This document shows, one piece after another, positions 6,431 to 42,691 of a stretch of 64,000 nucleotides of DNA (within the stretch, counting starts at the first letter, position 1; every line of letters starts with the position of its first letter). The stretch lies in the IMG/VR virus record IMGVR_UViG_2851938318_000001. The stretch is one strand, 5' to 3'. The notes below the pieces were generated by a model. The model worked only from the letters and a program-made list of their open reading frames with translations. It was not told the origin of the DNA and did no database searches. Made by a program: the position numbers and the translations under genes. This stretch comes from a virus (lineage: Duplodnaviria; Heunggongvirae; Uroviricota; Caudoviricetes).

Positions 6431-6790
6431 TTAACCTTTCTTCATCAACTCTCGTTTGATTTCATCGGTACGCATCGTGACATCGGCAGCGGTGATCGCC
6501 TCATTCAATTTCACGATGTCCTCGATTTCCTGCGGTGACTTCTCTGCCAGATGGAAAATGGCTGCTCGAATCACGTCAGAACGAGTGAACTTCTCGAAGC
6601 GAGGGATGAACTTCATCATCTCCAGCAGTTCGAAGTATTCGTCCTCCAGTGACATTGTGCGGCTTTTAATTTTCTCTTTGCCACGAGTCGGGCGTCCCTG
6701 TGGTCTGACTGGTTGGCGCAAAGGAGTTGTGTTCTTAGCCGGTGCATCAGGCTCTTTGCGCTTTGCTAGGTCACCCATTTTCATGGACAT
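6431..6790 (-). CDS. small centromere-binding partner of ParA (ribbon-helix-helix, ParG-like)
   Basis: 119 aa; basic N-terminal tail then a beta-strand/helix pattern (TMSLEDEYFELLEMM...RSDVIRAAIFHL); start overlaps the parA stop. Confidence 0.5.
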   Translation of the reverse strand: MSMKMGDLAKRKEPDAPAKNTTPLRQPVRPQGRPTRGKEKIKSRTMSLEDEYFELLEMMKFIPRFEKFTRSDVIRAAIFHLAEKSPQEIEDIVKLNEAITAADVTMRTDEIKRELMKKG

Positions 6791-7458
6791 TATTCTTCTT
6801 CCTCCAGACTCAACAGATAATCTACAAATTCTTCAAACTCGGCTTCCGCCTTTTTGTCGCGCTCGCTACCGGTCATTTCAAAGATAGAACGACCAGACTC
6901 TTCCGCATCATCATAGACGTTGCGGTTATATAGATTGACTGGCGCAGACTCGATTCCAAACGTCTCAACAATCTCTTTAGCCGCCAGAATGCGAGACACT
7001 TGTGATGGCAAAGCCGGGCACTGGTTCATGACCGCGCGGACCTTCACTTTATCGTTTACATTGCGAACATTGTCGATAATAGGATCGATGTCACGTAAAG
7101 ATTTCAAATCACGACGCTTAGGACGCAGCGGGATAATGATAACGTCAGCCATCAGCATCGCTTGTCGCTGAATTTCGGAGTCGAAGCCACCAGCATCTAC
7201 CACTACAAACTCAGCTCTACCCTGAAGCGATTTTAGGTGCTTAATGATGTCATCCTGAACGTATGCAAAAGGAATCAGCTCAAGGTCTTCGTTCTGTCGA
7301 CGGTCTTCACACCAGCTCGTTGTCGTGCGCTGAATATCTATATCGGTAATATAAACCTTCTTCTTCTTTTTGACTTTCAGGCAAACGGCAATTTGCTGGG
7401 CAACGGTGGATTTGCCAGGCCCGCCCTTTGTGCCGCCAACCACAAAGATCTTGGTCAT
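6790..7458 (-). CDS. parA: ParA-family partition ATPase (small, type Ib)
   Basis: 222 aa; deviant Walker A GGTKGGPGKST; second motif VVVDAGG. Confidence 0.8.
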   Translation of the reverse strand: MTKIFVVGGTKGGPGKSTVAQQIAVCLKVKKKKKVYITDIDIQRTTTSWCEDRRQNEDLELIPFAYVQDDIIKHLKSLQGRAEFVVVDAGGFDSEIQRQAMLMADVIIIPLRPKRRDLKSLRDIDPIIDNVRNVNDKVKVRAVMNQCPALPSQVSRILAAKEIVETFGIESAPVNLYNRNVYDDAEESGRSIFEMTGSERDKKAEAEFEEFVDYLLSLEEEE

Positions 7459-39237: not shown

Positions 39238-39354
39238 AGATCCCTCTAAAACACACAGAGCGCGTCCATGCGCTCTAAAACAACTTGTTTACTGCATCTG
39301 CTAACCAACTTGTTTTCTGGTGTGTCTAATTAGGTCTGGGCATGTCTTACTAAG

Positions 39355-39411
39355 CCTGCTTCTGTATATATATTTAATAAGTTACTTATTATTTATATAT
39401 ACAGAAGCAGG
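39355..39411. repeat. 57-bp palindrome, copy 2 of 2
   Basis: cctgcttctgtatatatatttaataagttacttattatttatatatacagaagcagg; nearly identical to 5445..5499. Confidence 0.8.
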
Positions 39412-39435
39412 TCTTTAAATAACGTCCCAGACCGA

Positions 39436-39702
39436 TTACATCACCAGTAACTTCGCTTTGGCTCGACCTAAAGTGGTTAACCCAAGAGTCCGGCGGTGAT
39501 AGCGATTGTCACTGCGTTGGCGCGTATGCCCTTTCTCCACCAGCCCCTTTTTTATCAGAGCGCGAATTGAGAACTGGATACTTTGCTTTGTTGTCTTGTA
39601 CGGCAAAACTTCAAGCAATTCGTCCAGATCAAGTAGATGACCTCGCTCATAACCGAGATTGAGCGTTTTGATGATGTCCTTTTGTTTGTCGGTTAACGTC
39701 AT
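39436..39702 (-). CDS. small winged-helix DNA-binding protein
   Basis: 88 aa, basic; last gene of the ParB/ATPase operon. Confidence 0.4.
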   Translation of the reverse strand: MTLTDKQKDIIKTLNLGYERGHLLDLDELLEVLPYKTTKQSIQFSIRALIKKGLVEKGHTRQRSDNRYHRRTLGLTTLGRAKAKLLVM

Positions 39703-39711
39703 GGCAAATCC

Positions 39712-40602
39712 TTATGCCGGTAAAGCAATTTCTAACGGTTTATCCAAAGGTTGTTTGTCGAATGCCAGCAGTGGCAGCGTGTCAGGCAGTCGACGACCAA
39801 AGTCAGGGTTTCGATACACACCATACAACGGAGACGTAAAGCTCAGGTTGTGAATGTCCTTGAGCAGCTTCACAATGCTGGCCTCGTCCACCAGACTGTC
39901 GGCAATGTCCTGAATCGTCGTGCCACGATTCCGCCCAGCTTTTGCCAGGGAACTGTTCTTGTGGTAGTCCGCCACCAGATCACGCAGTGCACGGCGACGA
40001 CGTGACTCGCTCATTGCGAACAACTCTTTGACGATCGCCTCGTTATCACCCGGGTCGGAGCGGAAATGGCGCTGGAACACACGCAGTGCACTTTCATAGC
40101 TCTTCGGTCGCTCAGGGCGGATGAACTTGAACCCTGCTTTCATGGCGAAGGGATTGTATTTGCTCATCGAGGATTGGATCTCAATGATTGGCCGGTCATG
40201 CATCCTGCTAACCAGGTTAATCATTCGATAAGAGACGCCTACGCCACGGTACTGAGTATCCACAACTGAGCGGCTGATCACCGCAAAGTTGTTATTCACG
40301 TACCGGCCCCAGTACTGGTTAGCCACGGTGGTATTGGTGGTTGGTTTCAACTTAGGAAACATGCGATGGCGAGGTGCCAGCAGAAGTTTCGGGTAAGCCA
40401 TAACCACGACGCCCACCAGACGGTCATCCAGTTCGCAGCGATAGTATGTTGGCGCGAAAGGTTTGCCGTCTGTTTTGTAGTGAAGCGACTTAAGAGCGTG
40501 CCAGTCCTCTACAGTTCCCTTTGTGACAGTCATTCGCTCCAGAAAGTCCAGATGACGCGGAAACTCTTCAGGGCGGTAGCGTTTAATGATGATGTCCGTC
40601 AT
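39712..40602 (-). CDS. GNAT-like protein (putative acyltransferase fold)
   Basis: 296 aa; motif ISRSVVDTQYRGVGVSYRMINL resembles the GNAT acyl-CoA loop; start overlaps the ATPase stop by 4 nt. Confidence 0.35.
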   Translation of the reverse strand: MTDIIIKRYRPEEFPRHLDFLERMTVTKGTVEDWHALKSLHYKTDGKPFAPTYYRCELDDRLVGVVVMAYPKLLLAPRHRMFPKLKPTTNTTVANQYWGRYVNNNFAVISRSVVDTQYRGVGVSYRMINLVSRMHDRPIIEIQSSMSKYNPFAMKAGFKFIRPERPKSYESALRVFQRHFRSDPGDNEAIVKELFAMSESRRRRALRDLVADYHKNSSLAKAGRNRGTTIQDIADSLVDEASIVKLLKDIHNLSFTSPLYGVYRNPDFGRRLPDTLPLLAFDKQPLDKPLEIALPA

Positions 40603-41264
40603 GAATGGACCTCATCATAACTACCATTGTGATATTCCACCTTCACGCGTTCTTTGTAGTGCTTGGTGATCTGCATATCCGGGCGCAGCGCGTTCTTCAG
40701 GTCTTCGTGAGTCGTCGCCACCATTACCGTCGCACCAACCTTTCGAGCGGCACGCTGGAGGTTAGATGCCACAACCTGAGCGGTTACACGGTCTAGAACA
40801 GCACCGAACTCGTCAGCAGCCCACACTTTAGCGCCTGACTCAATCAGTTTGGCAATCTTGAGACGATATTTCTGACCGTCTGACATTTCAGAAGGCTTGC
40901 GAACAAACAGATATGCATCGTTCAGACCAGCCATAGATAACAACCCAAGCGCATCGCTGGTCGTTTTGCCCAACTGATCGATGACGTTAACCTCATTATC
41001 GAAGGTAAAATCATCGATGGAGGCTACAGACAGCCCTTCATCCTTCATCTGGCGTTGCAGCTCGCGCAACACAACGGATTTACCTGAACCGGATTGGCCG
41101 GTGATGTACACCACATCGCCCTGCTTCACTTCCAGCTCCAGATTGTCGTAAAGCGTCCACTCTTTTTCGTCCAGGCCAAGCCCGAACGACTCAGCGATTT
41201 CCAACGTGCGCGTGGTTTTATTTACGCGTGTCTGAAACGATACGTTGATGATGTATTTACTCAT
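40599..41264 (-). CDS. ABC-type P-loop ATPase (stand-alone)
   Basis: 221 aa; Walker A GQSGSGKS, signature-like MSDGQKYRL, Walker B VWAADEF, H-loop TTHE. Confidence 0.65.
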   Translation of the reverse strand: MSKYIINVSFQTRVNKTTRTLEIAESFGLGLDEKEWTLYDNLELEVKQGDVVYITGQSGSGKSVVLRELQRQMKDEGLSVASIDDFTFDNEVNVIDQLGKTTSDALGLLSMAGLNDAYLFVRKPSEMSDGQKYRLKIAKLIESGAKVWAADEFGAVLDRVTAQVVASNLQRAARKVGATVMVATTHEDLKNALRPDMQITKHYKERVKVEYHNGSYDEVHS

Positions 41265-41929
41265 GCAGCCATCTCCCCGGAAGAGATCTTCTCCGCATAT
41301 GCCACAAATGCGTCTACCCCGCTTTCTCCCGTCATTTCTTCCATATGGGCAAGCAAATCACCAACAACAATGGCAGAGCCAGCAGGGAGCGTTTTAAAGC
41401 CCAATACGTCGACAACACGTACTTCTTCCGCTGCAACTTCACGACTGATCTCGGTGTGTTCATCCTTCTGTCGTTTAGTTTCTTCGCCAAGATCGATAAC
41501 TAGCGAGTCGGTGTCCATTTCTTCTGTCATACTGCCAACGAGAACATTCAACTCACGCTCTTCAAAGCCGAAAACCTCGATATCGTCCAGAACAAGCGAC
41601 TCAAGCTCTTTCTGTAGCTTAATTGCATCGTAATCAATGCTGGCAAGTCGGTTATCTTCAAGGCGCTTCGCACGAACCTCGTCATCACTGAGATCATCGC
41701 GAACAATAACCGGTACGCGCTCAAGTCCAGCAAAAATTGCAGCCTCACGGCGGCCGTGGCCAGTAATAATTACGTCGTTCTTATCGACCGTAATTGGCTG
41801 GTCAAATCCGCGCTTTTTAATGGCTGCGGCCAGATCTCGGATCTGCTGTTCATCATGCTTTTTGGCATTCATCTCATAGGGAATAAGATCTGCCGGGTCG
41901 CGATATACGATTTCAAACTTTTTGGTCAT
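41261..41929 (-). CDS. ParB/Srx-domain protein 1
   Basis: ParB box-II-like ITGHGRREAAIFAG; start taken at Met 41929, sharing one nt with the upstream stop. Confidence 0.65.
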   Translation of the reverse strand: MTKKFEIVYRDPADLIPYEMNAKKHDEQQIRDLAAAIKKRGFDQPITVDKNDVIITGHGRREAAIFAGLERVPVIVRDDLSDDEVRAKRLEDNRLASIDYDAIKLQKELESLVLDDIEVFGFEERELNVLVGSMTEEMDTDSLVIDLGEETKRQKDEHTEISREVAAEEVRVVDVLGFKTLPAGSAIVVGDLLAHMEEMTGESGVDAFVAYAEKISSGEMAA

Positions 41930-42627
41930 TACATACGCTCCTTGTAGTAGTCGACCAGCCACACCAGAGCCTCACCAGCGTTCTCCATTTCATTACCGGT
42001 GTTAATAGCCTGCTCTTTGATGATGTTTTTTATGGTTTCTGCAACACGATCTGACGCATCGAAAGTTACTTTGAAGCGCATGGTCTGATGTTCCGCCCCC
42101 ACACGTTCGGTTTTCTCTCGTTTGTCGGTATCGACAGGCTCATCACTACCACGAGACAACGCCTCCAGTGCTTCAAGGTCGATTGCCGCCTCTTTTGCTA
42201 AAACCATCGAGATTTCGTCGTCATACGGGGCGATTTCAGACAGTTGATAGTCAAGTTCTGACTGAATTTCTTCAATGAAGCGTTGCAATGCGATTTGGTC
42301 GTCTTCACCGTATCGCTCGTTGTCCACCAGTGACATCTGTTTAGCTACGACATCGCTAATTTTGCCCACAGAAAGCACCGGAACCGTTGAAATTCCTTGC
42401 TCAATAGCAGCACGCCAGCGATGTTCGCCGCCGAGGATTTCAAAAAATCCATCTTCAAGTTCACGAGCCAAAATTGGCTTAAAAAAGCCCAATTTTTCGA
42501 TAGAACCTTTCAGTTTTTCAAAATTCTGCGCACCAACCGAATTGGTGTTCCAGGTATTCGGGCGAAGGTTGGCAACATCAACCTGCAAAATCGTGATTTT
42601 TACATCCATTTTATTGCTACAATCCAC
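41929..42627 (-). CDS. ParB/Srx-domain protein 2
   Basis: 232 aa; ParB box-II-like ILGGEHRWRAAIEQGI; first gene of the operon; phage palindromic motif at 42627..42648. Confidence 0.65.
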   Translation of the reverse strand: MDCSNKMDVKITILQVDVANLRPNTWNTNSVGAQNFEKLKGSIEKLGFFKPILARELEDGFFEILGGEHRWRAAIEQGISTVPVLSVGKISDVVAKQMSLVDNERYGEDDQIALQRFIEEIQSELDYQLSEIAPYDDEISMVLAKEAAIDLEALEALSRGSDEPVDTDKREKTERVGAEHQTMRFKVTFDASDRVAETIKNIIKEQAINTGNEMENAGEALVWLVDYYKERM

Positions 42628-42691
42628 TAAGTAATTACTTACTTATTATAATAGCCAAATAACATACAAAAGGCACTAAGGAAAGAGGTTT

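Follow-up and report, generated by a model that had tools for sequence, protein, structure and literature searches.

A terminase-proximal ParB/ABC/GNAT operon of SSU5-like phage-plasmids as a candidate system for acylation of phage DNA

A 64,000-nucleotide stretch of DNA (the window) from an SSU5-like phage-plasmid, matching E. coli phage CMS-2020a and Cyrano/pLF82 at 98%, contains a five-gene operon (g1–g5) that is tentatively read as a ParB-assisted, ATP-dependent acyl-CoA transferase predicted to acylate nucleobases of the phage DNA. A preliminary description had left three options for these genes, namely DNA modification, a defence system or a packaging accessory set. The first is favoured because g3 and g4 are a split ABC::GNAT enzyme, because ParB-fold proteins have precedents in DNA modification and because acyl- or one-carbon-donor genes and ASCH domains are neighbours of the enzyme in other phages; defence is not supported, and packaging is weighed below. 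The same description did not recognise the gene combination, which has to be corrected. As relayed in PMC7824862, Iyer et al. (2013) predicted that the ABC-GNAT pairing, exemplified by Tenacibaculum phage pT24, acylates a DNA base in an uncharacterised way, and g4 had already been deposited as 'MK0520/COG2401' in the records of Cyrano and a Klebsiella relative.

Organisation and conservation of the operon

All five open reading frames were present and tightly packed on the minus strand (Table 1), in line with the preliminary description. Direct reading of the sequence gave TAATG with a 1-nt overlap at the g1/g2 junction and ATGA at the g2/g3 and g3/g4 junctions, so that the short overlaps hold for the first three junctions, while g4 and g5 are 9 nt apart, the spacer containing an AGGA-like ribosome-binding site. 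Translation of g1 could start at a GTG at 42627 (232 aa), the ATG at 42609 being more likely, as annotated in Cyrano. The flanking elements described earlier were also found, with the palindromic motif preceding g1 and a terS-like gene, then the TerL and portal genes, on the 3' side. The gap 5' of g1 is 64 nt long and is shared with a divergent UvsW-like helicase gene.

Table 1. Genes and palindromic elements of the operon (window coordinates)
Feature	Position	Strand	Remarks
g1, ParB_N-only protein	41929..42609	-	Pfam ParB_N 3e-13; 226 aa from ATG
g2, ParB_N-only protein	41261..41929	-	Pfam ParB_N 1e-8; 222 aa
g3, stand-alone ABC-type nucleotide-binding domain	40599..41264	-	Pfam ABC_tran 6e-13; 221 aa
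g4, predicted GNAT-fold acyltransferase	39712..40602	-	C-terminal half of ABC::GNAT fusion family
g5, probable winged-helix DNA-binding protein	39436..39702	-	88 aa; last operon gene
Palindromic 14-mer TAAGTAATTACTTA	42628..42641		Copy of phage-wide motif directly upstream of g1
Imperfect 101-nt palindrome	39333..39433		g5–terS gap; centre 39383, perfect 28-nt arms

The motif TAAGTANNTACTTA, allowing at most one mismatch, had 13 matches in the phage against approximately 0.15 expected from shuffled sequences. Eleven of these were intergenic and located 5–50 nt upstream of minus-strand gene starts, and the remaining two overlapped each other within the portal ORF. The same upstream motif is carried by the five-gene operon and by units of virion genes, and the TAAGTAATTACTTA copy is a likely promoter or operator of the operon. 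A further copy forms the core (AATAAGT.ACTTATT) of the 101-nt palindrome, with which the operon ends on its 3' side; this element may serve the terS-TerL unit as promoter or operator, or be a site for packaging. Its long arms are specific to the sublineage of the present phage, and loci L001, L005, L109 and L111 have the AT-rich AAGT/ACTT core in their g5–terS gap as well. Both the SSU5 and the Cyrano record, as deposited, start and end about 8 nt from the palindrome centre.

The gene order of the operon was identical in 30 divergent loci of the SSU5 supercluster, all of which carried it directly upstream of terS-TerL-portal, and each gene was intact in 75–80 of 80 close relatives. The conservation of g3 equalled that of TerL, with 52–64% identity in the most distant loci. 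The smallest gene, g5, is conserved in the supercluster and was found in 20 of the 30 divergent loci as well as in nickie and RHEph10. Values of dN/dS were approximately 0.01–0.05, which are rough because dS is near saturation. In the SSU5 supercluster the operon is a core unit, conserved vertically and kept under purifying selection.

Predicted properties of the five products

The products of g1 and g2 matched phrog_723 (2e-79) and phrog_930 (1e-112) respectively, and the box-II GxxRxxA pattern of ParB_N was conserved as GGEHRWRAA in g1 and GHGRREAA in g2. The motifs quoted in the preliminary description (GGxHR in g1, GHGR in g2, and GQSGSGKS, SDGQ, ADEF and TTH in g3) proved to be real and at least 90% conserved over the 30 divergent loci. 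No HTH_ParB or other HTH was matched in g1 or g2 at E ≤ 0.1 in Pfam, TIGR00180 scores were under the cutoff (43 against 58 bits), and the operon contained no cognate ParA. Both proteins are strongly acidic, as are their C-terminal halves, that of g1 having a net charge of -14 in a protein of pI 4.55. Of the separate partition pair proposed earlier, the ParA/MipZ-type ATPase was confirmed at 6790..7458, 33 kb from the operon; its partner, a putative ribbon-helix-helix protein, has 119 aa. The assignment of g1 and g2 as canonical ParABS ParB proteins was rejected on these grounds, as the earlier reading had anticipated.

The layout of g1 and g2, a ParB_N domain lacking a DNA-binding domain and adjoining predicted enzyme genes, is that of the ParB-fold activators of the 5mYOX type. 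It is documented that DNA-modifying enzymes can be activated by, or fused to, ParB-fold proteins (PMC13229309, PMC12704722), and fusions of the fold to DNA methyltransferases, ASCH domains and acetyltransferases are common (PMC12704722). The g2 protein resembles the N-termini of ParB-methyltransferase fusions (phrog_498, 2e-31; PADLOC MTase_II, 3e-17), a resemblance that is weaker in g1. Partner ParB proteins of other phages scored much higher with the profile of g2 than with that of g1, the g2 matches including Pmp13 (5e-41), 315.4 (3e-39), SL25 (4e-37) and P335 (6e-35). By these profile comparisons, g2 is of the widely conserved type that immediately precedes ABC::GNAT in other phages, and g1 is a second, lineage-specific ParB copy.

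The g3 protein has an intact Walker A motif, signature (SDGQ), Walker B glutamate, D-loop and H-loop, and its four quoted motifs were at least 90% conserved among 31 sequences and invariant in the fused family. The g4 protein consists of a GNAT fold with a CoA loop (residues ~20–165) and a conserved helical C-terminal extension (~166–296), both g3 and g4 retaining their catalytic motifs. It is a basic protein (pI 9.8, net charge +15, with +12 on the GNAT domain alone), which fits a nucleic-acid substrate. The g4-family profile collected 910 relatives, many of them 450–500 aa long with the g4-like domain at ~200–480 and ABC_tran N-terminal to it. Hundreds of viral contigs, and many cultured phages, encode fused ABC::GNAT proteins of this kind, whereas in the operon the GNAT gene directly follows that of the ABC ATPase. 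The g3 and g4 proteins are the two halves of what is, in most other phages, a single ABC::GNAT polypeptide. No membrane permease gene was found in or beside the operon in the window or 30 relatives, and the partners are ParB, GNAT and winged-helix proteins; an ABC transporter was therefore rejected, and the 'ABC transporter' names in databases are misleading.

The g5 protein is basic (pI 10.2) and matched phrog_900 at 2e-45. A single-sequence AF2 model, with a pLDDT of ~86 over residues 1–59, has the topology H1-b-H2-H3-b-wing-b, and the best Foldseek matches were LexA/DtxR/BlaI-type DNA-binding domains with probabilities of 0.94–0.99 and E ≥ 0.14. The winged-helix call made earlier is therefore upheld by the modelled topology, and can be given only as probable, not proven, because the structural E values are of this size and the sequence matches to winged-helix families are weak (LexA_DNA_bind, E 0.07; Sta1/Lrs14, E 0.003–0.004).

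Relatives in other phages and known systems

Co-occurrence outside the lineage, a point raised in the preliminary description, was found for ParB and ABC::GNAT. In 8 of 16 phage lineages unrelated to one another, with hosts spanning Actinobacteria, Firmicutes, Spirochaetes and Proteobacteria, the gene immediately before ABC::GNAT encoded a g2-type ParB and overlapped or abutted it; no ParB was detected beside ABC::GNAT in the other 8, including phiE255 and a Porphyromonas phage. Formyl_trans_N was encoded directly downstream in three lineages (Gordonia Axumite, Burkholderia phiE255 and a Porphyromonas phage). In Jace, the genes downstream of ABC::GNAT encode an aspartate decarboxylase (PanD) and a family-III CoA-transferase, which together look like an acyl-donor supply line, and ASCH (PUA-like) reader domains were located near ABC::GNAT in 315.4 and an environmental clade. 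A terminase was present within ~3 kb of ABC::GNAT in 9 of the 16 lineages and absent nearby in 7 (phiE255, Porphyromonas phage, P12024S, pT24, PX29, VmeM-32 and a fecal phage). In the Mu-like phiE255 the ABC::GNAT gene ends the tail operon, away from any terminase, in the position where Mu carries mom. One large environmental clade has ABC::GNAT directly after TerL, most gaps measuring -97 to +7 nt, and its 35 TerL-adjacent loci are essentially one clade and not independent observations.

Homology to the exemplar pT24 was detected through the ABC part and beyond it. The protein pT24_038 matched the g3 profile at 2e-24 and the fused ABC::GNAT profile at 2e-38, the latter match running beyond the ABC domain as far as profile position 262, and tblastn of the fused relative P0160 located pT24 at 6e-15. 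The GNAT part of pT24 is apparently split or frameshifted. The family COG2401 ('MK0520, ABC-type ATPase fused to a predicted acetyltransferase domain') has the same domain logic as g3 and g4 and includes them, and its 'known' function is only a prediction, since the family has no experimentally characterised member. The system described here differs in that two translationally coupled genes encode the enzyme, g4 has an extra conserved C-terminal domain of ~130 aa, and two ParB_N paralogues and a winged-helix gene complete a fixed core operon beside terS/TerL.

The TmcA/NAT10 enzymes couple ATP hydrolysis by a P-loop domain to GNAT acetylation of the exocyclic amine of a nucleobase. TmcA acts on RNA, and its GNAT domain, of a distinct subfamily (GNAT_acetyltr_2), is combined with a RecD-like helicase and a tRNA-binding domain, whereas g3 and g4 matched none of these Pfam families, and membership was rejected. 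The ParB_N-DNA methyltransferase fusions (phrog_498; PADLOC MTase_II PDLC03229) resemble g2 in their ParB_N module, whereas the operon has no methyltransferase domain, encodes its ParB module as a protein of its own and has the ABC/GNAT pair as catalytic partner. Genes for such fusions are commonly located just upstream of terminase genes.

The closest precedent for the ParB partners is 5mYOX176/ParB176, in which a phage ParB homologue with an N-terminal NTP-binding domain and no DNA-binding domain is required by, and activates, the adjacent DNA thymine dioxygenase (PMC13229309). The likeness is one of architecture and adjacency, g1 and g2 similarly having no HTH and lying directly upstream of the enzyme genes, while the 5mYOX176 enzyme is an Fe(II)/2-oxoglutarate dioxygenase without an ATPase. 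The Mom protein of phage Mu (PDB 8bv8), a GNAT-fold DNA adenine N6 modification enzyme, has neither an ATPase nor a ParB partner. Assignment of g4 to the Mom family was rejected, as there was no sequence membership and the similarity was no more specific than that to other GNATs (rank 23).

Proposed DNA-base acylation and alternative readings

In the proposed mechanism a g3 dimer would close on ATP like a clamp, as ABC domains do, and couple this to substrate engagement by g4, which would move an acyl group from acyl-CoA onto the exocyclic amine of a DNA base. The donor here would probably be acetyl-CoA, because a donor-synthesis gene is lacking. The acidic g1 and g2 proteins would be NTP-binding activators or DNA loaders, comparable to those of the ParB-dependent phage thymine dioxygenases, and g5 would bind DNA as a regulator or targeting factor. 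Modification would take place after replication and before or during packaging, and could either shield virion DNA from host nucleases or provide an epigenetic mark in the lytic programme. No report of modified SSU5-like virion DNA, or of an experiment on acyl modification by the ABC-GNAT family, was found in the literature.

A protein- or RNA-directed acyltransferase for host takeover or translation control, with the ParB-fold proteins acting only as NTP-binding regulators, is considered rather unlikely. There are precedents for both substrates, since Rac of phiKMV acetylates RNA polymerase and TmcA, an ATPase-GNAT protein, makes ac4C, but the signatures of TmcA are missing, the ParB_N of g2 is most like that of DNA methyltransferase fusions, and vertical conservation next to DNA-handling genes (the UvsW-like helicase and terminase) points to DNA.

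The tight terminase linkage also fits a packaging or maturation accessory complex, an unlikely reading in which the ParB-like proteins, ABC ATPase and winged-helix protein would act with TerS/TerL at the packaging site to prepare, mark or hold concatemer DNA, the ParB-like proteins possibly being nucleases or NTP-gated clamps and the GNAT acetylating a packaging or head protein. This would account for the invariant position of the operon in the supercluster, the terminase neighbours of the 9 lineages, the TerL-adjacent genes of the environmental clade, the TerL-like conservation of g3, and the large palindrome near whose centre the SSU5 and Cyrano records end. However, the enzyme lacks a nearby terminase in 7 lineages, the environmental loci amount to essentially one clade, the long palindrome is not conserved beyond its sublineage, and the formyltransferase, PanD/CoA-transferase and ASCH neighbours have no obvious part in packaging. 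Phages also commonly keep DNA methyltransferase genes immediately before terS, so the position of the operon alone is no sign of a mechanical role.

A defence, superinfection-exclusion or anti-defence module acting without DNA modification, such as a nuclease-ATPase or a ParB-type NTP-depleting effector, is very improbable. ABC ATPases and ParB/Srx domains do occur in many conflict systems (PMC10853773), and g3 gave weak PADLOC matches to mad3, mad8 and PtuA in their P-loop regions. Nevertheless, the gene set matched no system in PADLOC-DB v2, where g3 was a generic P-loop protein, g1 and g2 matched the ParB N-terminus of MTase_II and g4 matched nothing, and no nuclease domain was found apart from the ParB fold. 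The operon genes are absent from the Cyrano genes transcribed in the lysogen (PMC9928086), and the operon, unlike mobile defence islands, forms a core of invariant synteny in relatives from alpha- and gamma-proteobacteria, strictly lytic ones such as nickie among them. A second partition or copy-control system with g1 and g2 as centromere binders, suggested by the two ParB_N proteins and the database name 'ParB-like partition protein', is scarcely credible and already largely refuted by the properties of g1 and g2 given above, the distinct ParA-type locus at 6431..7458, and the presence of the same module in nickie and RHEph10, which are lytic non-plasmid relatives, as well as in temperate phages that are integrated or small.

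Returning to DNA-base acylation, it is possible, and proposed with some reserve, that SSU5-type phage-plasmids and their lytic relatives carry an undescribed ATP- and ParB-dependent acyl (e.g. acetyl) mark on DNA bases, installed by the split ABC/GNAT enzyme late in infection. Clinical E. coli, Klebsiella and Salmonella commonly carry SSU5-type phage-plasmids. If the proposal is correct, related phages would diversify the transferred group through their own donor genes (PanD/CoA-transferase, formyltransferase), and the operon would represent a new class of DNA-hypermodifying enzyme, unusual in its need for energy and served by a loader of the ParB fold.

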